From positions 88,164,001 to 88,228,000 of the forward strand of contig NC_086373.1 of NCBI RefSeq assembly GCF_036588685.1: a DNA stretch of 64,000 bases, written 5' to 3'. The notes beneath the pieces are model-generated. The model was not told the origin of the DNA, did no database searches, and saw nothing but the letters and a program-made list of their open reading frames with translations. The DNA comes from Mytilus trossulus (Eukaryota). The position numbers and the translations under genes were made by a program. Positions within the stretch are counted from its first letter, which is position 1; each line of letters starts with the position of its first letter. Positions 3,917 through 61,800 of the stretch are shown here, piece after piece.

Positions 3917-4323
3917 AAAAAAAATGGCATAACATTATTAACTTAACAGAAAACTGTCCTGTAATAATGGAAGAGTACTGGACATCTAGAAAATATTGGT
4001 TCTCATCTCCAAGCATTTGACCTATCTTTTATTTTGTAAAGATGCATGTATAATCAGATGTCAAATAAAAAAAATGTGAAATAAATGCATTAATCAATGA
4101 AAGTTTAGCATTCTAAAACTGGCAACAATTATTTACTTAATCAAATCTGATCAAGTCTAATGAGAAGATACAAATCAAGGTAAAACCCCCCAAAAACTTG
4201 GGGAATCCCATAAACTCCAAGGGAAAATGGGTGTGTATAGACTGGTTAAGCATCTTCTGCTATGCATGCAAATACATACTCAGCCAAAATATCACAGTCT
4301 GAAATAAAATAGACTACCATTCT

Positions 4324-4480
4324 AAAATTGAGAATGAAAATGGGGAATGTTTTAAAGAGACAACAGCCCGACCATAGAACAGACAACAGCAGAAGGTCAC
4401 CAACAGGTCTTTAATGCAGCGAGAAATTCCTGCACCCGGAGGTATCCTTCAGCTGGCCTCTAAACAAATATATATACTAG
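4324..4480 (+). repeat. Dispersed repeat family (aaaattgagaatggaaatggggaa...gagacaacaacccgacc); other copies at about 15980-16103 (-), 53228-53400 and 63827-63990
   Basis: Four recognisably similar copies in the window. Confidence 0.8.
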
Positions 4481-5178
4481 TTCTAGTATTTCAAGATCTA
4501 AGACCATTAAATCATACCATTAGTGAGCTGAGATATATACACTTCATATCAGTCTGGCAGACATGTTCATCTGAATAAATCTTTCTGTTCACAAAATAAA
4601 ATTTACGTATTGCTTAAAGTATTTGAAGGACAAAATCTTAGTTTTTTAAAGCAGTCACCTAACCCTAAAAAAAACAAGGTCAAAGAATGAATATACCGGT
4701 ATGCTAAATTGAATCTTTGTAAAATGAGACATCTGTATACAAGGTATTCAATATTAGAACTTTTGCTTTCTGAAATATAAAGTTTTATACAAAAAGCTTA
4801 CAAAAAAGTTTCATACAAATAAGCTTGCAGTGTGTTTTTTGCAAATTGCTGAAGAATTAACAATGACCTATAGTTACATAAACGTAAAATCTTGTTTCTA
4901 CAATACATAAAAAAGAATCAAAATTGACAACGAGAGCATTCTGAACTAAAAGAATCAAACATTTGTTGATATTGATATGATTCATTTAATTTTAAATTCA
5001 AATGAAATCCTTTGTGGTCACCTCAAACAAAACTGTTTTCAAATTTCAGGAAACTTGGTAATGGATTATAAGATCAAACCACCAATAACTACTAACTCTT
5101 GTGTACTGAATGTTTTATTCCTTCACTTTTAAAGTATTATTAAATGAAATTGGACAGTCAACAGTCTACACAATTGTT

Positions 5179-21570: not shown

Positions 21571-22970
21571 ATAATTAAAACATCCTGTACAAAAATTTTG
21601 AAAAAAGGGGGAAGTTTGTTCCTTTATTATCTGCGAAACAAAACATATTTGCAGTTAATAGTATCAAAATTTTGTATTATCTCATATCGACGTACTCAAA
21701 TGGAATATATATACAAATCTTCGAGTCAACTGGTACTCTCATCAACCTATTACAGAGGAAACATAAGAGGCACATTTATAATGATATGTACCCGGATGTT
21801 GTTGACATCGAAATGTAATATTATTGAATAGTATGTCCATATTATTGATTGAAAGATATATATTTATGGTGTTATCGTTCATTTAATTGCGTTTTGAAAG
21901 AAACGTTGAACTCTTACAATGACGTTTAAGAATTATGAAACATAAATCTCACATAAATTTGTTATTTGAAGAAAAGCAATTTTAAAATCCATTTGCAATA
22001 GGTTATTTCAATTTTAAACTTTCTAATTTACCTCCGCAAAATATATGTCAACAAGTTGAGAGAGAAGTGTTTGTAAGTAAAAAAACGTTTGATGTCAGTT
22101 TTACCAGAAGAAATCATTCCTTAATTCAAATTCACAAACTCAATTGTATGAAGTTTAAATTAGAAAAGAAAAATGAAAATGTCCTATTATAATACATAGG
22201 ACATCCTTGTTGGCCATGATTTTTTGCACAACCGAAGGGATATGAGAATCTCCTATATATCATTTAGGCTAAATTTTATTTGAACTGTCTAAAAATTTTA
22301 GACAATTTAAAACATTTAGAGGAGAAATAAAGGCAACAGTAGTATACCGCTGTTCAAAACTCTCAAATCCATGGACAAAAAACAAAATCGGGGTAACAAA
22401 CTAAAACTGAGGGAAACGCATAGAGGAGACATCAAAAACGCCCAAAATGTTATCAGATGAGTCCTACTGACGACTGGTTTGACCAAAAGAGAACAGAAAA
22501 ACTAGAAGCAAAACACATTAACCATAATAAGGTTGTGAACTCAGGTTCACTGGAAAGGTAAGAGCTCCTATACCATTAAAGACTTCTGCCGTGCTGCACA
22601 TGGCATGATTAATTCATGTTCGTTGATAAACGATTCGACATGCGAAACAAATCTATAGTTATCTATGTGATAAATCCACCAAGCAAAACACATATGTTGT
22701 CAAAAATAATAATGGTGACATTTACAGCTAGAATTTTGAGTACATTAAACAACGATTTGGAGACTTTAACTTAAAGTGGTCCAATTTCTGATCGATTTAT
22801 TTATTAAATTGCCTACATTTTGACCAGGCTGTGTGTTCTCTTGACTATCAAATAAAGTCACATTCTGCTCATTGAATTAGATATACATTTATCCTGTATC
22901 CTACAATCAGACAACTATGGCACACATAACAGATACACAGATAGTTTTCTGCTCTATATTTACTTGTACA

Positions 22971-23440
22971 AATAGTTATCAAAGGAACCAGGATTATAAT
23001 TTAGTACGCCAGACGCGCGATTCGTTTACATAAGACTCATCAGTGACGGTCATATTTATTAATCAAAACAAGTACAAAGTTGACGAGCATTGAGGATAAA
23101 AAATTCCAAAACGTTGTGCCAACTACGGCTATGGTTATCTATGCCTGGTAATCTATATAAGAAAATCCATAGTTTTTCGAAAAATTCAAAGTTTTGTAAA
23201 CAGGAAATTATAAAAACGACCACATTATTGATATTCATGTCAACACCGAAATGTTGACTACTGGGCTAGTGACACCCTCGGGGACGAAACGTCCACCAGC
23301 AGTAGCATCGACCCAATAGTGTAAATAGTTATCAAAGGTACCAGGATTATAATTTAGTAAGGCAGACGCGCTTCAGTGACGCTCATATCAAAATATTTAT
23401 AAAGCCAAACAAGTAAAAAATTGAAGAGCATTGAAAACCA
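22971..23440 (-). mobile_element. Non-LTR retrozyme-like repeat, about 1.3 tandem units of about 353 nt, with degenerate hammerhead motifs (23006-23048 mutated; about 23360-23382 core deleted)
   Basis: Unit start aatagttatcaaagg recurs at 22971 and 23324; same family as 45762-46136. Confidence 0.78.
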
Positions 23441-27027: not shown

Positions 27028-27683
27028 AGTATTTTTGTGATTTTACCTTTTTCCACTAGTTTACTCCAAAATAATTGATTGCGATCACATTTGATGTATA
27101 TATATTTAATCAACGCTATCTGCGCCGCTGTACCATACAAAACATTTGACTAGAACCCTAGCATCAATTATAAACAATGATACACGTTAACCAGTTGATA
27201 AATGCTTGAGTAAACCCATGAGTAAATGCTATAAGAAAACCAGTAGGTAAATGCTATAAGAAAACCATGTTTAATCCATAATTCTCTAATTAGAAAATAC
27301 TTGTACCAATTCAGGAATTAATAGTTGTTATCCATTCGTTTGATGTGTTTGAGCTTTGGATTGTGCCAGTTGATAAGGGAGTTTTCTTCTTGAATTTTTT
27401 TCTGGAGTTCAGAATTTTTGTGATTTTACCTTTTGTCATAGAAGTCAATCATTTCGAAATATTAAGCATTTGCCTATATGACAAAAATAATCAGCGAGGT
27501 ATGAATCCCTTCTGATCTTCACTCGCTATTCCCGGAAATGCTTCAAAATATCTTTTGGTTTATAAAAGTAAATTATTGATATTTGCTTTCTTGGTCCTTA
27601 CTTGTGCTTAGTCATATTGTATATATCAATGGAATGCTATTCTTATCTATAAAAGACTGATGTATTTTGTTCTAAACCTGTAC

Positions 27684-27997
27684 TAAATAAACTCATTATA
27701 GATATCAGGATTATATTTTGTTTTATGCCAGACTCGCATTCCGTCTACAAAAGACTCATTAGTCGAATTAAAAAAAGTTAAAAAGGTAAAAAAAGTACTA
27801 AGTTGAAGAGCATTGAGGACCAAAGTTCCGAAATGTTTTGCCAAATACAGCTAAGGTAATCTATTCCTGAGGTAGAAAAGCCTTAGTATTTCAAAAATTC
27901 AAAAGTTTTGTAAACAATTAATTTATAAATATGACCATATCAATGATAATTCATGTTAGCACAGAAGTGCTGACTACTGGGCTGGTGATTCCCTCGG
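27684..27997 (-). mobile_element. Retrozyme-like repeat copy (taaataaactcat subfamily), degenerate hammerhead; other copies at about 31195-31282 (+), 56137-56325, 57895-58040, 58263-58445 and 59990-60176 (+)
   Basis: Colinear similarity to the 45762-46136 unit, including the agactcatcagtgacgctc and gaagagcattgagga blocks. Confidence 0.7.
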
Positions 27998-29868: not shown

Positions 29869-31538
29869 CAAACTTGAAAACCTATAAAAAATTTATATAA
29901 CAATACTTATATATAAATCGTAATTTATCAACATCAAGAAACCTGCATGGCCTAATCAGGTAACACCTGCTTAGCAACATTTTTTGCCCAAGTGAAGTAG
30001 CTTATTTGTTTATATACCTTCAGTTAGCCTAATATAAATATCAGGTTTAACTACTAGTATTAGAACAGGACATCTCACCTGTCCGGAGCACCTGCGTTTA
30101 ACTCCAACAAGAGTTTATCTTGCTTGAGATGTATAGGAAGTGTCAATTGACTGTTGTATGGAAATTTTCATCAAACTTTAAATACGGGATGAAAAATGTA
30201 TCGTATGCCCTTGAGACGCTTTTTACTTCATTATTGTCGTGGGTATTGCCCTCTCAGTCACGTATACCATATGCATTTTCTTAAAAGTTCTTATATATAG
30301 AATACAATACAAGTAAGCAAAGAAATATCAAGCCATAAGAACATTGAATTCACAGTTTCAGCTTCGTGTCTTGTTGAAGTTTCTTATGGAGTATTGCGTC
30401 GCTGCTACTGTTGTTGATGGATTCCTTACACAAAGTCAGCAATATCATGCTGACATGAATTTTTATCGATACGGTTATAATTATAAATTTTTAATTGTTT
30501 ACAAAACTTTGAAGTTTTCCAAATCTAAGGATTTTCTACCTTAGGAATAGATTACCTTAGCTGTATTTGGTAACAGCTTTCGGAATTTTTCGCAATGCTC
30601 TTCAACAGTCAACACCGTATTTTGTGGCGTTTCAACTGTTTTAATTCGCGCGTGATTTTTTTTTAATACGACATTTTTTTAGTCCTAGTATATTTGATGA
30701 GTTTATTTACCAATGTGTTGATGCCTCTGGCGCTGTTGGTCTAATTCCCTAAGGTATCACCAAAACACTAGTTGTGACAATTTAACGATATCTTATTGTA
30801 GTTTTTTTTTTATAGCAACCTATTTGATCATAGAACAAAATGTCAAAATATAAAGTTTTAATCCTGGTGTCTATGATGAGTTTATTTATCAGTAGTAATA
30901 TGTATATAAATAACCAAATTTTAAAATCTCTTTTCACGTTTATCATATAATCACCATTTGACCAACTTTCATCGTATTTCATTAATAGTATATATTGCAT
31001 TTGTACAAAGAGCATCAACAATAGAGATATTTGGCAAATCTCTACTGGATATTTTTTTCTGTGCGATGATCACCACTATCACTGTCACTATCATTATCAC
31101 TATCTCATTTAATGATAAACTGAATTAACATCAATTCTTTCTAAAATAACAAGTCAACAAATAAATATACAATCAGTAAAATATATGCTCTTTCGTTTCG
31201 AGCGTCTCTGGTGAGTCTTTTGTAGACGAAGCGCGTCTGGTGTATATACAAAATATAGTCCTGGTATCTTTGATGAGTTTATACATATATTTTACTTTTT
31301 TATATGAGGGTGAGAAACTGGGGCGAAGTTATACCGCGCTCTTCCCCAGTTTTGTGCCGAAACAAAACAGTGTGTATATTTATAACAATGACCTAATAGT
31401 GGTTTTATACTGCAACTTAAATTAAAGCATTTATAGCTATTTAAATTGAAGCACAAACTTAATCCCGTAATGAACCACTGATTGTGGAAAACGTGTTCCA
31501 TAATGACATAGTCATTGTACAGAATAAAGCTGTGTTAC

Positions 31539-32255: not shown

Positions 32256-35200
32256 TTAGTCACTTTCTACAAGAAGACACAGTTTCGCAATTGGTCTCGT
32301 TAACACAGAATTTGCGGTTTTCACTTTGACAATTCTAACAACATTGTCCTTGTCTTTGATTAGTTCAATCACACGAGCCATGTTCCACGAATTTCTCGGT
32401 GCATTGTCGGAAATGGGAACTATGTCTCCTACTTGCATATTTCTTGTCGGTTTTGTCCATTTTGTTCTGCGCTGCAATAGAGGTAAGTATTCCTTTCGCC
32501 ATCTAGTCCAAAATAAATCAGCGAGATACTGGATTTGTCTCCATCGCCTTCTGACATAGCTGTCTGTCTTAGAGAACACACCAGGTGGAAAGCTTTCACC
32601 CGCAGGTTGAAGTATCAAGTGATTCGGAGTCAATACATTTAAGTCTGTGATACTATCTGACGCTTCTGTGATCGGACGTCCATTAAGAATACTTTCTACT
32701 TCACAGAATAGAGTCATAAGTCCTTCATCAGTTAGTCGAATGTTCTGTTCGTGCATGACTGAATAGAATACCTTACGCACTGATCTAATAAGGCGTTCCC
32801 ATACTCCTCCAAAGTGTGATGCAGACGGCGGATTAAATTCCCACTGAATGCGTTTCTGAATCATGAATTCCTGTATTTGATTTAAGTTCCATCTTTTTAT
32901 TTCTTCTCCTAGTTCCCTTTCTGAACCAACAAAGTTTGTTCCATTGTCTGTCCTTATAAAGACTGGCACTCCTCTTCTCGAAATAAATCTCCTTATAGCA
33001 TTTATGCAAGAGTCAGTGTCTAATGAATATGCCAATTCGAGGTGTATTGCCCTAATAGTCAGGCATGTGAAAATCACACCATATCTTTTAACTACACTCC
33101 TTCCTTGCTTTACCTCAAAGGGTCCAAAGAAATCTATTCCAATTCTTGTGAAAGGCGGATCATCAGCCTGAAGTCTTTCTTTCGGAAGATTTGCCATTTT
33201 CTGTTTTGAGCATGTTCCTTGATATTTCTTACATCTGACGCATCTAGACACTAAGCCTTTAATAATAGAATTGGCTCCTAAAATCCAATATTTTTGTCTA
33301 AGAACGGCTAAGATTGAATTCTTTCCTAAATGTCCATTTGAACGATGAATGTTCTCAATAATAAGTCTTGATATCGGTGAGTCCTTAGGCAAGACGATAG
33401 GGTGTTTTGATTCGTACGAAATATCCGATCGCTCCAATCGTCCTCCAACTCTAAGCAATCCATCTTTGTCGACAAATGGATCCAGATTGCTCAGTTTAGA
33501 AGAAATTTTGAGAGGACATTTCTTTTCAAGTGTCTGTATATCATCATTAAAGTGTTTATGTTGCACAAAACTAATCAAGGACCTCTCTGCACACTCAACT
33601 ATACTTGTCGTAAGCGTATCAGACATCTTCATACTCGTTTTTCCGTTTCCATCGATTTCAATACTGTCTTTAACACTTCTAAAGTGATTGGCTGCAAGTA
33701 CGAACCGTGCTGCTATGGTGACTAAGCGTTCCCAATTCGAAAAGTAAGAAATAAGACGTTCCATTCCTTCAAATGATTCTACAGTGCAAACAGCCACTGG
33801 TTTCTTAACTTCTGGATCATTGCCGATAAAACTAGTGTCCTCGGTACACTGTGGGAATTTAATGTCTTTATTCCATAAGAAATCTGGCCCACGAAGCCAT
33901 TGTGGATTTCTGTTAAATTGTTCAATAGTCGCTCCTCTCGAAGCTAAATCAGCCGGGTTTTCTTTTGTGCCTACGTAGTGCCATTGCTTTACTTTAGTTG
34001 CTTCGTGAATAACAGCCAAACGATTGGCTACAAAAGTGTGAAAACGTGTCTTTGAGTTTGCTATATATCGAAATACTGACATACTGTCTGAATAGTAATA
34101 AATGTCATCAAATGAGTATTCTATCTCTCTTATAATCATGTTTCCAAGCCTAACGGCACTAGTAGCAGCTGTCAGTTCCATCCTCGGAATAGTCATCGAT
34201 TTAAGCGGTGCTACTCTCGATTTTCCTAACAAAAAGGAACACTGTATACTACCGTCTTCATCGACTAACCGTATGTAAAATACACAACCATAACCTTTGT
34301 CACTTGCGTCTGCAAAACAATGTAGTTGGCATGAAACAATAGACTTGAAGTGTTGAGGCTTGTAGCATCTATCTATTTTAATGTTTTCCAATCCCTTAAG
34401 CTGACTGAGCCATTTGTTCCATGACGAAAGTTCGCTGTTGGGAATTTCTTCATCCCATCCAATTTCTTTCTTACACAATCCTTGTAGTATAGATTTGGCT
34501 GTCAATACAAACGGAGAAACGATACCAATAGGGTCATAGATTGAGCTGACTATGCTGAGAATTCCGCGTCTTGTTGACGGTTTTTCTTTAATGTTTATGT
34601 GAAATCCAAGTTTGTCATCTTTTATATACCAATACACTCCAAGTGCACGGTCGGTGAGACTATCATCTCCACAATTCCATTCCTCTATATTTCTTGCGCA
34701 ATCCTTTTCAGGTATGGATTGCACAACATTTTGACTGTTACTTACCCATTTAGTCATATTGAATCCGCCTTCTTTGCACAATTCAGTTACATTCTTAATA
34801 AGCGATATAGCACTTTCTTCTGTATCGGTAGAACTCAAACAATCATCTACATACATGTTCTTTGTCAGTGTATCAATCACTAAAGAATCAAATCTATCCT
34901 TGTTTTCTTTTGCCGTATTTTGTAGAGCGTAATTACTACAACTCGGTGAAGAAGTAGCCCCAAACAAATGTACTGTCATCCTGTATTCTTTAGGTTCAGT
35001 ATCAACATTTCCGTTTTCCCACCAGTAGAAACGTAAAAAGTCTCTGTCCTCAACTGGAACCTTCACCTGGTAAAACATTGATTCGATGTCACCTAAGACT
35101 GCTATTTTATCCTGTCGGAATCTGATAAGTACGTCTAAAAGATTGTTAGCAAGGTTTGGACCCTGTAATAGCTGACTATTCAAAGAAATGCCCATGTATT

Positions 35201-37181
35201 TTACAGAACAATCGAAAACAACTCGTATTTTGTCCTGTTTTTTCGCATGGTAAACTCCATGGTGCGGTAGGTACCAAACTTTGCCATCATTTCTATCTAC
35301 ATCTTCAGTAGGTACAGGTTCTGCATAGCCTTTCTCAATTATCTTTGACATGCAATCACAGTATTGTTGTTTGAAGTTATCGTTCTTGGCAAACTTGTGT
35401 CGGAGTCCGTTTAGCCTTTTTATGCCTTGTACTGAATTATTCGGAAAAACAACATCCTGGTCTCGAAATGGAAGTGCTATGCAGTAGTGCTGATTTTCTA
35501 AATGTATAGAGCTCTCAACTTGCTGCATGAATGTTTTATCATCAATAGAATTCTTTCTTTTGTCTTCGTTCATTCGTTCTGGAAAGTCTAAGTTAATGCT
35601 CTGCATTAATAAGTTCAACTGTGTTTCATCACATCCTTCATTTTGCATATGAACTCTATTCACTTCAAAGCTTGAACTGTCTCTTATAACATTCCATAAT
35701 ATCCACCCAAGTCTAGTTTTTGTGGCATGTGGGGAGCCGCTCGGTCCCGTGCATACGTTAAACGGTGTATAAGCATCAGGTACGTTGTTACCTATCATAA
35801 TTCCTATGTCCGCACCAATCTCTGGGATATCCACTGATTCCAAATGAGTCCATTTCTTGATTTCTCTTTGAGTAGGAATATGTTCCTTGTATACAGGCAG
35901 GTTTTCCTTAGTATATACTTTAGGCAAATCCACCATGTGTTCCATTGACAGACTAGACACTTGAAGGCCATTAATTGCACATGTATTAATAGTTTGTGTG
36001 TTTCCCATTGTACTTATATATATCTGAGTTTTCTTTCCATTAGCTCCAAGTTGACGCATTAACTTCTGGCTACAAAATGTTATGCTACTGCCTGAGTCGA
36101 AGAAAGCATAAGTCTCGACACTCTGGGATCTATTGTTCAATTTAACTCGCACAGGGATTATTGCCATAGCACAGTTCACATCACTACTAATGGAGCTAAC
36201 TACAACTGGCTGGGTGCCTTCATGATTTGTGGGTATTTGAGGATCATCCTTTTTAACAGATGGCTCTTGCTGTGACGATGATTGTTTGTTAATTTGATTG
36301 TCAATATGAAGTATAGTTGGATGAAGTCGCGCACATATTGAGCATTTGAGTCTCCTATTGCATTTATTACTCATATGGCCTTTCTTAAGACAACCAAAAC
36401 AATATCCCTTAGATTTCAAGTAAGCGATTCGGTCTTCACGTGGACGAGCTGTAAGTCGTTTACATTTGTCTAAAGCATGTGTACCTTCACAATAGGAACA
36501 GCGCATCTCAGTAGGTGCATTTTTTGCCACATCACATACATTTGAAACCTTTTGTCCATGTTGTCGCTGTTGATTCGTATTTCTAGAATTTGAATAATTC
36601 ATGGCAATGTTGCCATATGTCGGATCTGTAGCTTTTTTGGCTTCTGCTTTTACAAAGTTCACAAAGTCATTAAATTTAACTGTTCTATGTGAATCTTTTA
36701 CACGAAAAACAACATTTCTCCAGCGATCATGCATATGGAAGGGCAATTTTGACATTAGACGTTTGATATTTTCAGAATACTCTAAAACACTTCCGGCTTC
36801 CATACTCTCCGTGCCATACTGACATTCAACCAAAAACAATGCAAATTCGTCCAAAGATTGAATATCTCCTGATTTAATATTGGGCCAATCCAATGCCTTT
36901 TTAATAAAGGCTGAGGCCATCACATCTGTATCACCATATCGCTCTTCAAGATGACGCATTGATGCCTTATATGCTCTATCGCCTGGCAGGTGACTGTAAC
37001 TAGATACTACCTTATGTGCTTCTCCAAATGTCAGCTGCTCGAGGTAATTCATCTTCTCATCATCTTGTTCACAGTTCAAAACAACCTTTGATTCAAATTG
37101 TCTTAAAAACTTCCTATATTCCAATGGATTTCCGCTAAATTTCCTTATTTCCGGTGTCGGTTTTCTCAAATGCTGCACCAT
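32256..37181 (-). CDS. BEL/Pao Gag-Pol polyprotein (capsid-like region, three Cys/His knuckles, aspartic protease, RT, RNase H, integrase)
   Basis: 1641-aa ORF: FSGNPLEY; CSYC..H..C, CFGC...GH....C, CSIC...HPTILH; FFDSGS; WYLPHH, KIRVVFD, YVDD; LHCFADAS, TIPRMELTAA; GIDFFGP, RTDNGTNF, GGVWERLIRSV; RPIAKLCLL. Confidence 0.97.
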   Translation of the reverse strand: MVQHLRKPTPEIRKFSGNPLEYRKFLRQFESKVVLNCEQDDEKMNYLEQLTFGEAHKVVSSYSHLPGDRAYKASMRHLEERYGDTDVMASAFIKKALDWPNIKSGDIQSLDEFALFLVECQYGTESMEAGSVLEYSENIKRLMSKLPFHMHDRWRNVVFRVKDSHRTVKFNDFVNFVKAEAKKATDPTYGNIAMNYSNSRNTNQQRQHGQKVSNVCDVAKNAPTEMRCSYCEGTHALDKCKRLTARPREDRIAYLKSKGYCFGCLKKGHMSNKCNRRLKCSICARLHPTILHIDNQINKQSSSQQEPSVKKDDPQIPTNHEGTQPVVVSSISSDVNCAMAIIPVRVKLNNRSQSVETYAFFDSGSSITFCSQKLMRQLGANGKKTQIYISTMGNTQTINTCAINGLQVSSLSMEHMVDLPKVYTKENLPVYKEHIPTQREIKKWTHLESVDIPEIGADIGIMIGNNVPDAYTPFNVCTGPSGSPHATKTRLGWILWNVIRDSSSFEVNRVHMQNEGCDETQLNLLMQSINLDFPERMNEDKRKNSIDDKTFMQQVESSIHLENQHYCIALPFRDQDVVFPNNSVQGIKRLNGLRHKFAKNDNFKQQYCDCMSKIIEKGYAEPVPTEDVDRNDGKVWYLPHHGVYHAKKQDKIRVVFDCSVKYMGISLNSQLLQGPNLANNLLDVLIRFRQDKIAVLGDIESMFYQVKVPVEDRDFLRFYWWENGNVDTEPKEYRMTVHLFGATSSPSCSNYALQNTAKENKDRFDSLVIDTLTKNMYVDDCLSSTDTEESAISLIKNVTELCKEGGFNMTKWVSNSQNVVQSIPEKDCARNIEEWNCGDDSLTDRALGVYWYIKDDKLGFHINIKEKPSTRRGILSIVSSIYDPIGIVSPFVLTAKSILQGLCKKEIGWDEEIPNSELSSWNKWLSQLKGLENIKIDRCYKPQHFKSIVSCQLHCFADASDKGYGCVFYIRLVDEDGSIQCSFLLGKSRVAPLKSMTIPRMELTAATSAVRLGNMIIREIEYSFDDIYYYSDSMSVFRYIANSKTRFHTFVANRLAVIHEATKVKQWHYVGTKENPADLASRGATIEQFNRNPQWLRGPDFLWNKDIKFPQCTEDTSFIGNDPEVKKPVAVCTVESFEGMERLISYFSNWERLVTIAARFVLAANHFRSVKDSIEIDGNGKTSMKMSDTLTTSIVECAERSLISFVQHKHFNDDIQTLEKKCPLKISSKLSNLDPFVDKDGLLRVGGRLERSDISYESKHPIVLPKDSPISRLIIENIHRSNGHLGKNSILAVLRQKYWILGANSIIKGLVSRCVRCKKYQGTCSKQKMANLPKERLQADDPPFTRIGIDFFGPFEVKQGRSVVKRYGVIFTCLTIRAIHLELAYSLDTDSCINAIRRFISRRGVPVFIRTDNGTNFVGSERELGEEIKRWNLNQIQEFMIQKRIQWEFNPPSASHFGGVWERLIRSVRKVFYSVMHEQNIRLTDEGLMTLFCEVESILNGRPITEASDSITDLNVLTPNHLILQPAGESFPPGVFSKTDSYVRRRWRQIQYLADLFWTRWRKEYLPLLQRRTKWTKPTRNMQVGDIVPISDNAPRNSWNMARVIELIKDKDNVVRIVKVKTANSVLTRPIAKLCLLVESD

Positions 37182-37246
37182 ACTTTGAAAGGCTGTTTCT
37201 ACACTACTGTTAGTATTTATAGCTGAATTTTGAATTGGCGCAGATG

Positions 37247-38245
37247 TTATCTTTGAGTTGGTCCGTATGATTCATGAACATTCTCTTTCGGAAGTTTAAT
37301 ATTGTTTTTGATCATGTTGACAGACGGTAGATTCACGAAATCTAACATACTTGTTTCCTTCAAAATATCTGATTTCTTTTTAACTGGTTGAAATACCTTT
37401 GCCATCGGATCTAAAATTGCTGTTTCGATAGCTGGCTGTACTGTACTTTGCAAAGGTTTTGATTTCAATTCAACATTTTCAAGTTTTACTTTTGGAGTTT
37501 CAACATGGTCAATTTCACCCTTTTCAAACTTGTCGTATATCTTAGCTTTTGCATCAGCTACAGCTATTTCAGTTTGCATTTGAAGTTCATCTTCATCTAA
37601 CTGTAATGCCGTTTTTGCCATTTCAAGTTCTCGCTTACGTTTCATTGCTTGTCTTGAAGCCTCAAGCTCAATCCTCTTTTCTTCAACTTCTAGTCGTTTT
37701 GAAGATACTGACGAGCTGTCCGCGCTTCTAACTGACCTCCCATGAACACTTGCCTGCACTTTTACTGGGTTAGCATTGAGATATTCTTGTATCTTGAATT
37801 GACTGTTCATTAGAAAAGTATCTCTTATAGTATGAATTTTCATATAATCTTCCTGCTCAAGGGCATTAAGTTTATCAAAATGAATTCTATGTTGGATATA
37901 AAATTGTTCATATTCCTGCATCCAATTATCATAGCGCAATCTTATTGTCTCGAATGTTTCGTTATCAGAAATTAGTCTTATTATTTTTTCACTTAATCTT
38001 TTTAATCCATCATAGGATTTGGTTATTTGTTCTTCACTAAATTCTTTACCTTTATCGGTATACTTTCTTGGCCTAGCTCCGCCTGTCGCCTCTGAGGTCT
38101 TCTGTGCTTCCTGTTCATCCGTTTTATTTGTTTCAAAGTTCTTATCCATATTTGATTCTGTTTGTACAAAATCTGTGTCCACACTTTTCAAAATTATATT
38201 TTGATCTATTTTGCTGACAACCTTATCTGTGTCCTCACTTTTCAA
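37247..38245 (-). CDS. N-terminal Gag portion of the BEL/Pao element (coiled-coil rich), out of frame with the main ORF
   Basis: 332-codon ORF directly inside the 5' LTR, with a Ser-rich then E/K/R-rich coiled-coil segment typical of Pao gag N-termini. The annotated start is TTG, so the true start is uncertain. Confidence 0.8.
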   Translation of the reverse strand: MKSEDTDKVVSKIDQNIILKSVDTDFVQTESNMDKNFETNKTDEQEAQKTSEATGGARPRKYTDKGKEFSEEQITKSYDGLKRLSEKIIRLISDNETFETIRLRYDNWMQEYEQFYIQHRIHFDKLNALEQEDYMKIHTIRDTFLMNSQFKIQEYLNANPVKVQASVHGRSVRSADSSSVSSKRLEVEEKRIELEASRQAMKRKRELEMAKTALQLDEDELQMQTEIAVADAKAKIYDKFEKGEIDHVETPKVKLENVELKSKPLQSTVQPAIETAILDPMAKVFQPVKKKSDILKETSMLDFVNLPSVNMIKNNIKLPKENVHESYGPTQR

Positions 38246-38310
38246 ATTCTATTAATAGACTGGGTTCTTCCTTCTGTGACGTGCTCATATTCGTCAAATA
38301 AGTCAATGAA

Positions 38311-40326: not shown

Positions 40327-41791
40327 ATGTCACAGCAACAACAATCAAGTGGAGATGCCTATGGTTTGGATATGGAGAACAGAGATCCTAATGATATAAA
40401 TAATCATATTAAGGTACAGAGTGAGGTCAAACGTATTCGTCTATTCAAATGTTTTCCAATATATTGTATATAAAACTAATTTAAAAAAAAAAATATTTTG
40501 GGCTCATTTTTGGTTTGATTTTAAGCATATTGGTACCAATAGAAGCATAATTGTGACATGTTTATTTGTTTATTTGTTTATAAATTGTTTTGTTATTATA
40601 TTGTTATTATTTTGTTTCATTCATTTTTATTTTTTCACAAGATAAACACAAAATATTATTTTCTGTTCAGAAATTCGCTTTATGTTCAACCAAATTAAAT
40701 TATAAAAAATTATTGTATGTGTTCATATCAAGAGAAAACAAAAACACCTGAGGACAAAACTATTACCAAAGAAACAAACATACTATAGACAATTCTGCGT
40801 CTTGTAAGGCCTTGTTGAACAAAATCCAACCATAAAGCCCTCAAATATTTTTTTTTAAGAAATGTGTTTTTATATTGATTGATAGCAAAAAAAATAAAGG
40901 TGACGAATACTTTTGGCCAGGTACTGTATATTGAAACAAATATTATCATAAATAGTAATTTGAAAAATTTGAAACTACTTTTATAAAAAAAAAATACAAC
41001 AACCGTACCTGTTAAAACGAAAAATATCGAGTATTACCAACCTCGTCATACGTTTAGTATAACTGAACACCATGAATATAAAATATTGTTTTATGAAAAC
41101 TTCTCAAAAAAAAACTTTTTCCAGGAAAAGAAACTGAAAGACAAACAAACATTGACACACTTATAGAAATATTCAGCAATCTGAGTCAAACTTACATTTA
41201 TTACACATATGTAAAAGAAAATATTTTTGTATTTTTGGGGGTTAGATTAATCTGTTGCCAGTAACGAATGAAACGTAATGTATTTGTATGTTTGAGTTTA
41301 GATGTTATCTTTCTGTGGTAAAATCTTTTCTGTTGCGTATGCCACTCGATCAATTTCTAGAAAATAAATAGTATTAGTGATAAAGGGTAACTCAGAGGAT
41401 ATAAAACACACATTAATATAACAGATTTGTTTTCTTCATTATAGCTCTTTCTTTCCAGGTTGCTTTTGAAGACATCCTCGCCGAAGTACAAGGTGCTCAC
41501 GCTATTGATTGTGTATGGAGAAACAGCTACAGATGTTTCGAAGGAGGAAGGAGTTGCTGTTATAAGTTCTTGACAGCCATCTGTGGAATATGTATCGCTT
41601 TATATTGGGGATGTTGTTTTGCCTGTTTGGCTTTCGAGCACATCTGGTGTATCACTCCCAGTTTATCTGCTTTTAGAGTCGAGTGTGGCGCATGGAGAAA
41701 GTATTACAGCATTTGTATGGACTGTTACTATGGTCCGTGTTGTGAGACCATGGGTTTATTCTTCAGTAATATAAAGGTTCAAAACAAATAA
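40327..41791 (+). CDS. Caveolin family protein C (exons 40327-40413, 41459-41791; 139 aa)
   Basis: MSQQQQSSGDAYGLDMENRDPNDINNHIK|VAFEDILAEVQGAHAIDCVW...NIKVQNK*; phase-0 GT-AG intron. Confidence 0.92.
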
Positions 41792-45300: not shown

Positions 45301-45761
45301 AGTTCCGTAAATGTTTTACCTTCCGTCGACCTATTTTGGCTATTCCTTTGCAATTCTGACTTTTCATCGCCGAGTATATACTCGTACTGGACTTACGACA
45401 ATGGTAGTTTTCCTCATGTCGGGTTAAAAAAATAAAATAAAGAGACATTCTTAAACTTTTGATGTTAATACTGTCCATTCTAGGTCATGAAGTAAGAAAA
45501 AAAATCAAATATAAATCACTTTCAAAAGTTGTACACAAGAACTTCGGTTGTAAAGTAATTTACGATTTAGAATCTATTAATATAATTATCTTAAACGAAC
45601 ATGAAAGAAAACATTATTAACAATGCAATATGTATTGGTGTTGTGTTTGTCACATTTTATGGTTCTGTCAACACCAAAAATTTGCAGAACTGCCAGTTTG
45701 TAAGCTTTAATTTATAATTTGACTTTTAAAGTTCTATACATCTTAGCAACAAAAGGCTTGA

Positions 45762-46136
45762 AATAGTTATCAAAGGTACCAGGATTATAATTTAGTACGC
45801 CAGACGCGCGTTTCGTCTACATAAGACTCATCAGTGACGCTCATATCAAAATATTTATAAAGCCAAACAAGTACAAAGTTGAAGAGCATTGAGGATCCAA
45901 AATTCCAAAAAGTTGTGCCAAATACGGCTAAGGTAATCTATGCCTGGAATAAGAAAATCCTTAGTTTTTCAAAAATTTCAAAGTTTTGTAAACAGGAAAT
46001 TTATAAAAATGACCACATTATTGATATTCATGTCAACACCGAAGTGTTGACTACTGGGCTGGTGGAAACGTCCACCAGCAGTGGCATCGACCCAGTGGTG
46101 TAAATAGTTATCAAAGGTACCAGGATTATAATTTAG
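45762..46136 (-). mobile_element. Non-LTR retrozyme-like unit (341 nt plus the start of the next unit)
   Basis: Terminal direct repeat aatagttatcaaaggtaccaggattataatttag at 45762 and 46103; contains an intact hammerhead. Confidence 0.82.
45797..45840 (-). ncRNA. Minimal type I hammerhead ribozyme
   Basis: Minus strand reads GCGUCA CUGAUGA GUCU-UAUGU-AGAC GAAA CGCGCG UC UGGCGU: stem I GCGUCA/UGGCGU, full catalytic core, stem II, palindromic stem III ACGCGCGU, GUC cleavage triplet. Confidence 0.85.
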
Positions 46137-46476
46137 AAACCTGGAATACCTCCTTCTAAGAAAATAAGAAGTCTGAACAAATATCTGTTCGGAGTTTGAA
46201 TAAGGAAAAGGAGAGGTCTTCATAGGACAAAAAAAATGGAACTAGATCTTATCAACAGAGACCCGAATGAGCACAATGGTTATATAAAGGTTTGGCACAT
46301 TCTTGTTGTAAAAGTATTGCATAACCGATCCAGATGAAAAATAAGAAAATATCTAACATTGCACACGCTGAACTCTACAAAGCTTTTGAATTTGAAATGA
46401 CTTTCATCAGATATTTTGTTTTTTGTCCATGGATTTATGAGTTTTGAACAGCGGTATACTACTGTTGCCTTTATTT

Positions 46477-48400
46477 ATATACGTTATTACGTACAAAGTA
46501 AGGGGATCTGAGATAACTTTCATCAGATATATACGTTATTACGTACAAAGTAAGGGGATCTGAGATAACTTTCATCAGATATATACGTTGTTACGTACAA
46601 AGTAAGGGGATCTGAGATAACTTTCATCAGATATATACGTTATTACGTACAAAGTAAGGGGATCTGAGATAACTTTCATCAGATATATACGTTATTACGT
46701 ACAAAGTTAGGGGATCTGAGATAACTTTCATCAGATATATACGTTATTACGTACAAAGTTAGGGGATCTGAGATAACTTTCATCAGATATATACGTTATT
46801 ACGTACAAAGTAAGGGGATCTGAGATAACTTTCATCAGATATATACGTTATTACGTACAAAGTAAGGGGATCTGAGATAACTTTCATCAGGTATATACGT
46901 TGTTACGTACAAAGTTAGGGGATCTGAGATAACTTTCATCAGATATATACGTTGTTACGTACAAAGTAAGGGGATCTGAGATAACTTTCATCAGATATAT
47001 ACGTTATTACGTACAAAGTAAGGGGATCTGAGATAACTTTCATCAGATATATACGTTATTACGTACAAAGTTAGGGGATCTGAGATAACTTTCATCAGAT
47101 ATATACGTTATTACGTACAAAGTAAGGGGATCTGAGATAACTTTCATCAGATATATACGTTGTTACGTACAAAGTTAGGGGATCTGAGATAACTTTCATC
47201 AGGTATATACGTTGTTACGTACAAAGTAAGGGGATCTGAGATAACTTTCATCAGGTATATACGTTGTTACGTACAAAGTTAGGGGATCTGAGATAACTTT
47301 CATCAGGTATATACGTTGTTACGTACAAAGTTAGGGGATCTGAGATAACTTTCATCAGGTATATACGTTATTACGTACAAAGTTAGGGGATCTGAGATAA
47401 CTTTCATCAGATATATACGTTATTACGTACAAAGTAAGGGGATCTGAGATAACTTTCATCAGATATATACGTTATTACGTACAAAGTTAGGGGATCTGAG
47501 ATAACTTTCATCAGATATATACGTTATTACGTACAAAGTAAGGGGATCTGAGATAACTTTCATCAGATATATACGTTATTACGTACAAAGTTAGGGGATC
47601 TGAGATAACTTTCATCAGGTATATACGTTGTTACGTACAAAGTAAGGGGATCTGAGATAACTTTCATCAGATATATACGTTGTTACGTACAAAGTTAGGG
47701 GATCTGAGGTAACTTTCATCAGATATATACGTTGTTACGTACAAAGTTAGGGGATCTGAGATAACTTTCATCAGATATATACGTTGTTACGTACAAAGTT
47801 AGGGGATCTGAGATAACTTTCATCAGATATATACGTTGTTACGTACAAAGTAAGGGGATCTGAGATAACTTTCATCAGATATATACGTTGTTACGTACAA
47901 AGTAAGGGGATCTGAGATAACTTTCATCAGGTATATACGTTGTTACGTACAAAGTTAGGGGATCTGAGATAACTTTCATCAGATATATACGTTATTACGT
48001 ACAAAGTAAGGGGATCTGAGATAACTTTCATCAGGTATATACGTTGTTACGTACAAAGTAAGGGGATCTGAGATAACTTTCATCAGATATATACGTTGTT
48101 ACGTACAAAGTAAGGGGATCTGAGATAACTTTCATCAGATATATACGTTATTACGTACAAAGTAAGGGGATCTGAGGTAACTTTCATCAGATATATACGT
48201 TATTACGTACAAAGTTAGGGGATCTGAGATAACTTTCATCAGGTATATACGTTGTTACGTACAAAGTAAGGGGATCTGAGATAACTTTCATCAGATATAT
48301 ACGTTGTTACGTACAAAGTAAGGGGATCTGAGATAACTTTCATCAGATATATACGTTATTACGTACAAAGTTAGGGGATCTGAGATAACTTTCATCAGGT
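46477..48400. repeat. Satellite array, 52-bp unit, about 37 copies
   Basis: Unit gatatatacgttattacgtacaaagtaaggggatctgagataactttcatca with three main biallelic positions; no unique spacers. Confidence 0.97.
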
Positions 48401-55976: not shown

Positions 55977-58092
55977 CTAAATTGACTTAAAAAATGTTAA
56001 TATCTGTGATAATTATCTTTATTTAAAGACGTTTATGTTTCAAGAAAATAATATATGATTTTATATATTTGTTGTCTTTTATTGTCACTTTCAATGATAA
56101 ATGTACTGGCTGTTTTAAGTAATACATAATCATTGAAATAAACTCATCATAGATACCAGAATTGAAATCTTATATTTGAACAAGACACGCGCATTTCGTC
56201 TACAAAAGACATCAGTGACGCTCGAATAAAAAAAAAGTTAAAAAGAACCAAATACTACGAAGTTATAGAGTATTGAGGTAAACAAAAATCTAAAAGTTTG
56301 GCCAATACAGCTAAGGTAATCTATGCAGAAAAAAAACCATTGCAATTCTTACTAATATGATAATATAAAAATAAGGAGATATGGTAGGATTGCCAATGAG
56401 ACAACTTTCCACCAAAGTTTAAATGGAGTGGATGTAAGCAATTTTATGTATACATATTAATCAATTCATTTCAATATACAAGACATGTGATTAAAAAAGT
56501 TGATAACAGGAGGAGGCAAAAGAGAAAGACATTTAGAAGCATCAAATATAACAGTCTGATGTCATCCTTCGTATATAAATATAAATGAACAATAAATTAA
56601 TTAATAAACATTAAAAATTTATTGAATATACCTAAATTATTATTTTGTTCCAACATTGGATGGATCGGATTTGGAATATTTGACAGAATTTTAAAAAGGG
56701 GCTTGAGTATTCGAAATGTTTGTCAAATTTTCCTCAACTTAAAGGATGACTGTCAAAGTTGACAGAGTTGAGAACATCATTTCATAAACATTTGATGCTG
56801 TAAAATAACCTGTGAAAGTATTGGTCTTCTCTGTACTCACATTTGTAGAAGCTACTTGACAGGCCTTTAAAGGCTTTTACATATGTCATCATCATGCTTT
56901 CGATTATCAGCATAGAGCATAAAAGGGTTACAGAAATTCTGAAATTATTGGACAGTAAAACAAACCACAGCAAACACCAACTCCGAGAAAATAAAGACAG
57001 ACAAACACAGAAATACATTGGCTAGATAGCCCTACTTTGTGTGAAGGCATGCAATTAGGTTGGAATAAAGTTTCACAGAGTCATACCCAATTTCCATATA
57101 CGCAAAATGTCGTAAATGTGAAATTAAAGCACATAAAAAAAGACCACTCGCTTGCTTACTTGAGCCCTGCTGCTGTTATAGCCTATACTATCATCTTTAA
57201 TGGCAAAAGGATGCACTCCCCACAACTCTCTATTTACCCATTATACATTGGATCTACATAAACTCATACATGATGCTCAAGATCAGTACTTGATTTTTGA
57301 ACTGAATGTTTAACAGGTGCTTCAAGCATGAAATCTATATCTGTGTCAGATTTCTGATTGAAATTTCTTTATTATTTCAATAAACTTTACCCTTTTTATA
57401 TGTTTTAGACATTACTCTATAGAAAATATGCACTACCCCTTCAATCTGATTAAAATTCGAAGCATGTAAGCATAACGAAATCAGAGACCTGCATCTTGAT
57501 TACAGTGTTCCTCTCAAATCAAGCATATATAACGAGCTATATATATAACGATCATTGCATTCTCTCTGTACGAGGCACTTGATGTAACAGTCAAATTCCT
57601 ACCTGACGTAGCAGCATTATTTTTTGGTCAAATAATCGCAAACGGATATACTCAATAGAAATGAGTTATAAGAATTGCTGGATAGGACTTCAAGTGTCAA
57701 CTATGTCATACATGTTCAGGACGAGACACTCTACCGAAATGAATAATTGAACCAAACCAATATTTATAGGCATTGGAACGGATGTTTTTAATAATTCATC
57801 GCATATAATCTTAACATCGGAGTAGGCGAAAAACAAAAAAAAGATGATGTATAATAGGACAAGGTGAGCAATTGCTTAAATTTTTCATAATTGTGTACGC
57901 AGGACGCGAGTTTCGTTCACAAAAAACACAGTAGTGACGCTCAAATCAAAATTGTAAAAGGCCAGATAAAGTACAAAGTTGAAAAGCATTAAGGCTTAAC
58001 AATCCCGTAAGGTTTGCTGAATACAGCTGAGGTAATCCGTTCAGAATAATATAGCAAAACAAAACAAAAATAAAAAAAGGTATTGCTAATTG

Positions 58093-58845
58093 AAAGGACA
58101 AGGTACGATAAGGTCCGTTTTTTGACCCCACTATTTTCTTATTTCTTTGCAAATTTTGATTTGGAAAGCTACTGATCACATTAAAATATTCCCTAAGGTT
58201 CGAAGTTTGTTTGGATGAACCTCAAAACCGTTAATTTCAAAAAATGGGTGAGGTGAGGGGGGTAAATAAACTCATCATAGATACCAGGACTATTTTTTTT
58301 AATATACGACAGACGTGCATTTTGTCTACAAAAGACTCATCAGTGACGCTCGAATCCAAAAAAGTTAAAAAGGCCAAATAAAGTACGAAGAATGAAGAGC
58401 ATTGAGGACCAAAATTCCGAAAAAAAAATCAAAATTCAGCTAAGAATGCTAAAAGAGCATAAAAAACGCCAAAGAAGGAAAAATTTCGATTTTTTGCCAC
58501 AGCTTCTCAAAATTTAAAAGCGTACCAATACGTAAATATGGCGATATGGACAGTTCAAACAGTTCCCATGACATTGGAATAAAAAAAAATCTTGGGTCAC
58601 GTTGGCGCAGGCACTTACAAACTAAGATTTCGTTGTACGGAACATCTACAAAGTTAATGATAATTACAATATTTAAATAATAACCGAAATTTTAAACCTC
58701 CCCTCACCGCAAGCGGTTGCTAGAATTGTTTTTTTCCTAAGTTCATCAAAACAAACTTCATACCTCAGGGAATATTTTGACATGATAAGTAGCTTTCCAA
58801 AACCGAATTTGAAAAATGAGAAAAAATGGGGGCCAAAAGCAGTTC
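58093..58845. mobile_element. Degenerate foldback/MITE with about 140-bp inverted arms and a nested retrozyme-like insert
   Basis: tttggaaagctactgatcacattaaaatattccctaagg (about 58160-58199) is inverted as cctcagggaatattttgacatgataagtagctttccaaaa (about 58763-58802). Confidence 0.6.
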
Positions 58846-61800
58846 AAATGACAAATAATCATTGTTTGAGCTTTTATCTGGTTTTCAAACAATTAATCTA
58901 AATAATTTTAAATAGGACAAAACCTCGATATGTTTGCATAAAAACAAAATTGAGAAGTTAACGATCAGATATAATTCGTTCATCCCCTAAATTTCACTAG
59001 GCAGCAATAATTAGAATTAAGAATAAAGAATGCGTATTTTTCAAGTCTATGGAAGTAAAATACCCATGAAGTAGTGATGTATAATTTTTTTATTTCTTGA
59101 CCAAATTGATCCAAAGATGTTCGGTAATAATATATTATCTAATTTAACATATAATTAAAAAAAATAAGTTTATAGCAACGGTTTTTTAGCTTTATATTTA
59201 TTCAATTCATATCAAGGCCAATTCTAACATGTTTTCTTAAATTAACTGGTGCTAACCAATCATTCAAAGGACTCGCTTTTTTATCGATAGGATTTTTTTG
59301 TTTTGTCTTTCGAATACACAGGCGGCGGACAAATGGTTACATCAATTTTCAATCTATGAAAAACGTTTCATTTGTTGACAATAAAAGATTCCATAATTTG
59401 CCATTTTATACGAATGACCTTTTTGGTTCAGATATTTTTTCGGCTAGTAAGATTGAACTAAAAAAGCCTTTAAATCTTACTTAATAAAATGGAACGTCAT
59501 TGACTGTCAATCTTTCTGATATTTCGACTTTTGTAAGTAAAATTAGGTAAGTTTTTTTATATCTAAATATACACTCATTGCGAAACTATTAACCTCCTAA
59601 AAGACATATTTATAATCAATTTACTACCTACATTGGGCAACTCGGTTACGAAGCAGATCTTTAAAATTGTGGGTGACACAAAGGATGGAAAAGAACCAAC
59701 GTTTTATTGTTTGGTTTAGGTCACTGAATCAGACTTACTACAAAATAAATGCTCAAATCAATGATTGTTTTAAACAATAGTTTCCACTAGAATACTATCC
59801 AACCTGACCTTAAAAATATGTTTAATTTGCCTTCACTTCTGTTTGTGTACCTTTTTTTAGACTTACCCACCTGGGTGCTATTATAAGTGGTCACAAAGAG
59901 TTAAACTCAATAGAGGCATACAGTGAAAACACTTTTTCTGGATATGTTTAACAGTTCGGTCATTTTTTTTCAAAGGCGAATAAGTCAGGAATAGATTACC
60001 TTAGCTGTATTTGATCCTTTGTTTTCTATGGGCCTCAATGCTTATTTACTTCTTACTTTATTTAACCTGTTTATCTTTTTGTTTTTAATTCGAGCGTCAG
60101 TGATGAGTCTTCTGGAGACGAAACGCACATCTGGCAAGCACAACGTTAAGCCTAGTATCTATGATAAGTTTATTTACTAGTTCATTTTTCCTGTTGAACT
60201 AAGTTCCCGAGGTGTCATCAGTTGAGTGAGTAATTATGCGGTACTGTCATGACTTATAACATAGAAGTCTTAAAATCGCTGCTGATAAATGAAGAAATTA
60301 TTAAGAAACTGGTTCCAACTCTCTGGCAAAGTTGACCTTAGATTCATAAGGCAAGTAATAGTATGTGTTGATCCGGTTTGATAATCTAGTTCGCATGTTT
60401 ATGACGTATATATCCTTCGATTTCAAACTTTCTCGTTATGGTGTTTATAAATGTCGAGGGAGTGATTTTAATGACTCGACTTGTAACTATCGATTTCATA
60501 GTTTCCCTGTAAGAAAAAAACATCCATTCAAGAAATCATGATTGGAAAAAAATACTCTGAAATATCATATCAAGTACGAAATGTAATCGCTGAAATAATT
60601 TATCGACTGAGATGTATCTTGCCTAAGTAGCTATCCTCTATCAACGAAATCATAATAGGAAAAGCTCAAGAATATTGCATCATTTGGTAGACATTGTTAT
60701 ACTCTATATACAGGCGGATATATAGATATCCATTCACCCATTTCATCATTTTGTCTATATGTTATATGTTTTTATGCACAAAAAAACATTTTTTTTATTT
60801 CAGTTTTATGTGTATATTTATGTTTCAATTGGATACGAAATTGTTTGATTAAGTAAGTCCTCATGATCAATGAAATGTATTAAAAAATAGTAGTTTACTG
60901 ATTTTCAAAACTCATGATCTTTTTTGTTTAACAAAACCAATAAAAAATTAACCGAAATCATCAAATCAAAAGTTACATGTCGCTGTCAAAGTTCCATTTT
61001 TCGATGACATCCCATGTTTGCATGTTTTAACCTCGTTTTTTTTTGTCAAGTAATATCGATATACAACAATTATATTATTGAAATCATGAAAATCAGTTGT
61101 TATATTTAATTGAATGCTCATATCTGTTTTTTAATTCATCTATTTAACCGATGGACATTTTTTAAGAAATATAAATAAGAGGCAACTAAAATGTACCGAT
61201 GTTAAAATTAATATGAAGAGTAAAATAACAAAAACACAGAACCACAAAAAAACTCAAAACTGAAAGTCCCTTCTAAAATGGCAAAATCAAAAGTTCAAAT
61301 TCATCAAACGAAGGGATAACAACTGTCATGTTCATGACTCTGTACAGGCATTTCCTGCTGTAGAAAATTAAGGATTAAACCGAGTTTTACAGTTCTCATC
61401 TGTAGTCAACAAATTGTAATTGTTTACAAATTATTAGTATTCGTTATTTAAAACAAGTTCTTTTATTTGTACCGTATTCCTTTCATCTAATGTTGTCATT
61501 TTAATGTTATATTTAAAACATTGCCATTAATGCGGACAGTTTTGGCTAGCCGCAAAACAAGGTTCAACCCACCATTTTTTTTCTTAAAATGTCCTATACA
61601 AAGTCTCAAAAATGGCCTATGATATATTATAGTTCGTTTCTGTATGTGTTACATTTTAGTGTTGTGTTTCTGTTGAGTCGTAGTTTCCCTCTTATATTTG
61701 ATGTGTTTCCCTCAGTTTTAGTGTGTAACTTGGATTTGTTTTTTCTTAATCGATCGATGAATTTCGAACAGTGCTATACTACTGTTGCCTTTATTCTTCG

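Follow-up and report, generated by a model that had tools for sequence, protein, structure and literature searches.

The hammerhead ribozyme at 45797-45840 on the minus strand of the window most probably belongs to a 5′-truncated, single-ribozyme copy of a 355-nt mussel retrozyme that is likely to have been spread by the reverse transcriptase of Naiads, since the retrozyme carries the Naiad start domain. The window is the whole stretch analysed here, 64,000 nt of the Mytilus trossulus genome (contig NC_086373.1, positions 88,164,001 to 88,228,000). The retrozyme itself is known; new with respect to the literature that we found are the fixed 3′ end of its insertions, the Naiad-type domain beside that end and a Naiad as the likely helper. 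The fixed end and the domain are the informative parts of this locus, whose ribozyme and copy are ordinary. The features referred to below are as follows.

45797..45840, minus strand: type I hammerhead ribozyme with intact core, predicted to cut after GUC between 45803 and 45802
45761..46136, minus strand: whole retrozyme insertion of 376 nt, made of one 341-nt unit (45761-46101) and 35 nt of the next
45761..45802, minus strand: 42-nt tail from the cut site to the fixed 3′ end, with a U-rich run at its end as the putative start of reverse transcription
46051..46105, minus strand: Naiad-type start domain with stems P1, P2 and P3, damaged (E 8.7e-07 with the Naiad-only model)
46032..46051, minus strand: hairpin of 8 bp capped by a cUUCGg tetraloop, adjoining the Naiad-type domain on its 3′ side
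45760..45763, no strand: GAAA, repeated at 46136-46139, a candidate 4-nt target duplication or microhomology, weak alone
22970..23434, minus strand: older 1.3-unit copy of the same 355-nt family, with both ribozymes broken and the same fixed end
23258..23326, minus strand: full-length Naiad-type domain in the older copy (61.2 bits, E 5.2e-14), the best match in the window
30702..30771, plus strand: decayed Naiad-type domain in a relic retrozyme copy (E 7.7e-06)
46408..46476, plus strand: end (3′) of an autonomous family B Naiad, which breaks off just short of its start domain
27700-27995, 30448-30771, 31200-31285, 56187-56326, 57895-58037, 58256-58422 and 59986-60177: seven further decayed retrozyme relatives, several of them of family 2 and some ending at the same fixed point

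An earlier note, made from the sequence alone, had read an intact type I hammerhead here and had passed over the fixed 3′ end and the Naiad-type domain. On stems, core and cut site, a strict descriptor and the Rfam model RF00163 agree with the note. Stem I has 6 bp, two of them G-U, and is followed by CUGAUGA, a 4-bp stem II with a 5-nt loop, GAAA and C17; helix III is formed by the palindromic ACGCGCGU. With a palindromic helix III included, the strict descriptor has its sole match in the window at these positions and none in 100 Markov-simulated windows. The hammerhead model search that the note had proposed as a check gave an RF00163 match at exactly the same 44 bases (33 bits, E 2.6e-06), and the motif has the CUGANGA core, GAAA, NUH and three stems, with stem I open, of the type I class. 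At gathering score the Rfam scan left the window without any match, because 33 bits is one under the gathering score of 34. Folded as a 44-mer, the hammerhead (−5.7 kcal/mol) is not the minimum-energy structure (−9.2 kcal/mol). A second hammerhead candidate on the opposite strand, at ~46055-46085 (GAAACGUC motif), was rejected: CUGANGA is missing, and the sequence is that of the Naiad domain read antisense.

The description of the ribozyme as minimal and acting as a dimer is not supported. Helix III consists of 2 bp and a tetraloop and not of about one pair; the accessible part of a 2020 review keeps ‘minimal’ for hammerhead motifs without helix III; and the cloned M. galloprovincialis repeat, as a monomer, cleaved itself alone at ~0.1 per min (PMC7229834, as far as accessible). 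The window motif is a real hammerhead and not a minimal one. A capacity to dimerize is suggested by the sequences, because the palindrome is kept in all families and its self-duplex has 8 bp (−13.3 kcal/mol). Helix III is palindromic throughout the compared retrozyme families and a neighbouring hammerhead family, and in one family its innermost positions change together though unable to pair in the monomer (a single event). Covariation, which the note had asked about, is present between families: 5 of 13 pairs change on both sides (score 0.45 versus 0.18 shuffled), in a sample of 6 sequences from 4 families, namely the retrozyme families and the neighbouring hammerhead family, with few independent events.

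The insertion itself has its fixed 3′ end at ~45761, is truncated at its 5′ end at 46136 and is ~94% identical to the family unit, than which its own unit is 14 nt shorter. Its start domain has a 14-nt deletion behind 46064 that has removed the 3′ side of the inner stems. The head-to-tail recurrence claimed earlier stands as regards its periods (341 nt at 45761/46102 and 353 nt at 22971/23324) and falls as regards two full units: the unit from 46102 is only 35 nt long and ends 7 nt before the cut site, and the ribozymes of the older copy are broken, at 22971 by a change of A15.1 to U together with a mismatch in stem II, and at 23324 by deletion of the core. Since there is one intact ribozyme at 45761-46136 and none at 22971/23324, no copy in the window is able to release a unit-length RNA. 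There is also almost no RNA depth in the unique flanks of the insertion, and the circle formation from these loci that had been proposed is not supported. The window copy is a dead end, with one ribozyme, a damaged domain and silent flanks.

Several other elements occupy the window. A decayed 3′ end of a Naiad A copy at ~27400-27440 (plus strand) stops before its own domain, and a young 52-bp satellite (46476-48398, 37 copies, 97% match) starts exactly at the Naiad B 3′ end. A Caveolin exon lies at 41417-41791 (plus strand), ~4 kb from the insertion. The BEL/Pao LTR retrotransposon at 32256-38248 (minus strand), which has an open frame of 1,671 aa (Peptidase_A17, RT, integrase zinc finger, DUF1759 and DUF5641) and an upstream one of 333 aa, is unrelated to the retrozyme.

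The assignment to mussel non-LTR retrozymes, also made in the note, proved right: the accessible parts of the literature report the family with self-cleavage and circular RNAs (PMC7229834) and print a sister subfamily sequence (PMC4918200, Additional file 11). This mussel non-LTR retrozyme was published in 2016 and 2020, so that its ribozyme and circular RNAs were already known. The family has the hallmarks of metazoan non-LTR retrozymes, with a unit of 150-450 nt, one type I hammerhead, tandem and dispersed copies, and neither ORF nor LTR. In the 1.30-Gb genome we counted 11,294 exact copies of a 35-nt ribozyme core pattern and 2,818 of a loop variant, against 0 for the reversed-pattern controls; copies occur singly and in arrays of up to ~70 units. 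Family 1 shares ribozyme and domain with the published mussel element, and family 2, compared by eye, agrees with the printed 375-nt element in ribozyme, tail and domain. We also observed a third family (L124:5304-5462, L243:6289-6447, L014, L120 and L169) with a covarying hammerhead (AUGCGCAU helix III), a Naiad domain and the same end point. Among 47 units of family 1, divergence in the ribozyme is 1.7% versus 3.8% for the rest (p 0.0009); for the Naiad-type domain, conservation above that of the remaining unit was not significant (p 0.20). Two arrays that lie close to the beginning of the largest contig, one of ~70 units and one of ~15 (G000:C1, ~269,000-295,000 and 113,000-118,400), are candidate source loci; at L046-L048, a 1.3-unit insertion has been amplified inside a larger repeat of ~1,055 bp.

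Transcription was followed in four public RNA runs, which carry the species label of the best DNA match and may come from a related species rather than from the species of this genome, and which placed 3,472-8,872 reads on the stretch. Three of the four had a ~2- to 9-fold strand excess, consistent with RNA of the ribozyme strand, and the fourth, random-primed run had none; in the same three biased runs the strands at Naiad C 3′ ends were near 1:1. Among the sequencing runs indexed as containing the stretch itself, none is registered as RNA, which counts neither for nor against transcription. Read ends in the four runs did not heap at the hammerhead cut site. Head-to-tail joints were found in the reads; such joints also arise from genomic arrays, so that they do not distinguish circles from tandem read-through. 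The folding energy of the whole circle lay ~2 SD below shuffles on either strand and did not single out a strand.

The insertions have a fixed 3′ end. We aligned 50 loci to a concatemer, leaving out one array that fills its whole stretch, and on the ribozyme strand the 3′ end fell at unit phase 350-6, ~42 nt past the cut site, in 47 of 49 loci; of the two exceptions, one carries an internal deletion beside this end. The opposite (5′) ends are spread over the unit, none of the 49 being near the cut site. Such a combination, a constant 3′ end and 5′ ends truncated at varying points, is the hallmark of target-primed reverse transcription. Forty of the loci were the best matches to a 1.1-unit query, so that array lengths are biased and the elements young; two resemble a segmental duplication of each other, and in one the right end falls within a longer array. 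The same end behaviour is seen in ten loci chosen solely by the ribozyme pattern, and for the loop variant (family 2), judged by eye, 23 of 30 loci stop at the same point and 7 run into the next unit. Duplications at the junctions are short yet longer than under random pairing (mean 3.3 versus 2.5 nt over 48 loci; at least 5 nt in 25% versus 5%). Long target-site duplications were not found, a loose test being near its control and a strict one giving only short duplications, and neither did the junctions reveal a fixed target dinucleotide beyond the U-rich end.

Just past this fixed end lies a covarying 70-nt stem-loop that is also common to the 5′ untranslated regions of three Naiad families, where it stands just before the ATG. 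Its fold comprises P1 (6 bp), P2 (6 bp), an invariant core of CUGCUGGU and CCGAG, and the P3 hairpin. Across three Naiad and three retrozyme families, 72 of 72 cells of P1 and P2 pair, and the G-U pairs among them are valid on the hammerhead strand only. In seven related Naiad sequences, 7 of 12 pairs change on both sides (score 0.63 versus 0.34 shuffled and at most 0.26 slid), values that, given this relatedness, are not a probability. A covariance model built from Naiads only ranked the three retrozyme domains of the window at the top (E 5e-14, 9e-07 and 8e-06; next E 0.5); when the closest Naiad family was left out, they scored 4e-07 (23258..23326, 3.7e-07), 0.0025 and 0.25, two of them below 0.01. 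The model found no match in the 60 kb flanking the window, while recovering three retrozyme controls.

By eye, Naiad consensuses of 12 families in the accessible supplement of Craig et al. 2021 (PMC8557442) share this core, at their beginning or close to it: Naiad_Mgal, Mcor, Bpla, CGi, Sglo, Olur, Tgra, the Pmar entry, 1_Skow, 1_Pfla, 2_Pfla and Cmel. Three Acropora-labelled entries in the part of that collection at hand have, again by eye, a longer variant of it. We take Skow and Pfla in these names to stand for hemichordates.

A search for GIY-YIG domains found many Penelope-like elements in the genome, among them Naiad families A, B and C with an N-terminal GIY-YIG endonuclease and a DKA motif. 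The family A protein is nearly identical at its N-terminus to the published Naiad_Mgal, which also points to a Mytilus host; B and C are two further families, ~50% identical in protein, with the same 70-nt element before the ATG. Insertions of all three stop just before the domain (A, 29 of 30 loci; B, 25 of 25; C, 25 of 25; together 79 of 80), and the retrozyme ends in the same register to the domain as they do. Genome-wide, exact end patterns number 2,058 for A, 5,397 for B and 5,118 for C; for A this compares with 42 exact read-throughs into the domain, by patterns that overlap and are not identical. RNA reads on a family C Naiad drop ~hundredfold at the junction, where their ends heap up and their flanks are mixed, and it is there too that reads of the retrozyme are joined to the Naiad domain (58-250 reads per run). 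Intact candidate helpers are present, as many open Naiad frames of 1,056 aa with 97-100% identity, along with family C frames of 978 and 1,000 aa; C is the family closest to the retrozyme in sequence, A the one for which most intact copies were seen. On sequence and by analogy, a Naiad reverse transcriptase is likely to bind the domain and to copy the retrozyme. In a subfamily of Naiad A, the 27-nt retrozyme 3′ end occurs in the untranslated region and has been copied along (L069, L070, L074, L104:3056-3082); this match is a short insertion and not shared ancestry.

These observations can be assembled into a route of propagation. Tandem arrays are transcribed on the hammerhead strand, as RNA reads show for the family, and the ribozyme would cut the multimers into monomers that are ligated to circles, as published for the M. 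galloprovincialis family. Naiad protein would then bind the 70-nt domain, as its shared, covarying structure suggests, nick AT-rich DNA and begin cDNA inside the RNA, at the U-rich run ~6 nt 5′ of P1. We infer this start from where retrozyme and Naiad insertions have their fixed ends, with the in vitro behaviour of Poseidon as the analogy. Since no more than 42 nt separate such a start from the 5′ end of a monomer after cleavage, longer insertions would need a circular or uncleaved template. Judging by the end mapping, copying would continue through the ribozyme site, round a circle or along an uncleaved multimer, and variable drop-off of the reverse transcriptase could yield arrays of one to tens of units.

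It is with the template of this last step that the most durable alternative is concerned, in which the repeat is a detached Naiad 5′ piece with a ribozyme and its template would be long linear multimers made by read-through of big arrays, the circles being a by-product. It alters that step only and is compatible with a Naiad helper. Arrays of ~70 units are there to supply such a template, and ribozyme cleavage was dispensable for Poseidon in vitro (accessible part of PMC11167929). Variants common to non-adjacent units in arrays L010 and L111, with patterned variants also in L143, fit it too and fit poorly the copying of a single monomer circle. Units are, on the other side, closer within a locus than between loci (1.9% versus 4.7% divergence; 80 units, 25 loci), 63 of the 80 have their nearest neighbour in their own locus, and several arrays are nearly uniform; circles are the main form in mussel tissue, as the accessible text of PMC7229834 has it; and the ribozyme is the most conserved part of the unit. 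We consider linear templates doubtful as the main route.

Other readings bear on the helper. Shared ancestry could explain the domain without any current use of Naiad protein, and it leaves unexplained that young insertions end beside the domain. It is improbable that a canonical, hammerhead-bearing Penelope-like element with a C-terminal endonuclease mobilises the retrozyme, the Naiad domain being an inherited passenger. Canonical elements with long ORFs are present in the genome, some of them beside a hammerhead close to that of retrozyme family 3 (L085, L100, L108 and L109), the 42-nt tail past the cut site resembles a Penelope tail, and the accessible text of a preprint ties Xenopus retrozymes to the pLTRs of such elements (bioRxiv 10.64898/2026.07.22.740005). 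Yet in 11 loci, a sample of the Penelope-like families whose endonuclease is C-terminal, the Naiad-only model had no match; the canonical elements in that sample lack a retrozyme-like 3′ end except in inserted copies, which removes them as its source; and the retrozyme end keeps the domain register of three Naiad families. A DNA-level rolling-circle (Helitron-like) element or a locally amplified satellite with an incidental ribozyme would account for tandem arrays, one fixed end and the lack of long target duplications, and is largely refuted and hardly credible given a domain shared with retroelement 5′ untranslated regions and its strand-specific G-U pairs, a covarying ribozyme, strand-biased RNA and no fixed target dinucleotide beyond the U-rich end. 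Separately, we noted a repeat of ~640 nt next to Penelope-like elements whose endonuclease is C-terminal (L085, L096, L100, L108 and L109); its hammerhead is close to that of family 3 (AUCCGGAU helix III), and it is possibly a ribozyme donor. At L107 and L109, a canonical Penelope-like ORF is followed immediately 3′ by a hammerhead whose palindromic helix III is short.

Taking a Naiad as the likely helper, we see a somewhat better than even chance that the 70-nt stem-loop is a general Naiad signal, conserved across mussels, oysters and further phyla, that means ‘bind here, start just upstream’, and that the retrozyme is a chimeric parasite of this signal and a hammerhead, for which a Naiad reverse transcriptase that has no ribozyme rolls round an RNA circle. 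If so, retrozymes would have a named helper and a mapped start site, and the signal would be a portable one by which any RNA circle could be turned into DNA. The route by which animal retrozymes become DNA has been an open question since 2020, with the helper only guessed to be some hammerhead-bearing Penelope-like element; the observations made here favour Naiads instead, elements that have no hammerhead, together with the 70-nt signal and its start site. The signal would also be a first cis element for the transposition of Naiads, a major source of bivalve repeat DNA.

The retrozymes of M. galloprovincialis described by Cervera and de la Pena 2020 (PMC7229834) comprise, in the text accessible, ~5,000 such ribozymes in repeats of 350-390 bp, with abundant circular RNAs ligated by RtcB. 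They agree with ours in a unit of 350-390 nt, a type I hammerhead, tandem and dispersed copies and two subfamilies. The 375-nt element of PMC4918200 Additional file 11 matches our family 2, the window copy being of the 355-nt sister subfamily, and the published construct Mg353 resembles the window family in unit length, a likeness by length only. Larger target duplications are described there, whereas we found only short ones. On the helper, the accessible text says that ‘PLEs are a strong candidate’ and nothing more specific, and it mentions neither the fixed end nor the Naiad domain. Vertebrate retrozymes (Li, Clavereau and Pollet, bioRxiv 10.64898/2026.07.22.740005) are likewise non-autonomous partners of Penelope-like elements; they differ in that their pLTR similarity is to hammerhead-bearing elements of other clades, and the text available includes no mussel, Naiad link or start site. 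Our literature search did not find a link between retrozymes and Naiads, which supplements unseen by us, subscription journals, Repbase or Dfam may hold.

Naiads as described by Craig et al. 2021 (PMC8557442, as far as accessible) share with the retrozyme the 70-nt domain, at the start of the consensus, a fixed 3′ end before the domain, 5′ truncation and partial tandems. They encode EN-RT and have no canonical hammerheads; in the retrozyme a hammerhead is present and an ORF absent. The accessible parts of that paper mention retrozymes in one sentence and describe neither the domain as a structure nor a link to retrozymes. For Poseidon, Frangieh et al. 2024 (PMC11167929) report, in the portion accessible, that reverse transcription starts inside the element's own RNA and needs RNA 3′ of the start, that the binding region lies around and 3′ of the start, that AT-rich DNA is nicked and that ribozyme cleavage is not needed. 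Poseidon PAc resembles the system described here in its internal start near a structured region, in genomic ends that mark the start and in its AT-rich targets; it belongs to another clade, has two start sites inside the ORF region and bears its own hammerhead, and the likeness is one of behaviour. By that analogy, the 70-nt domain is best read as the Naiad equivalent of the internal-start region of Poseidon, and the retrozyme would keep it for the sake of cDNA initiation by Naiad protein at the U-rich run.
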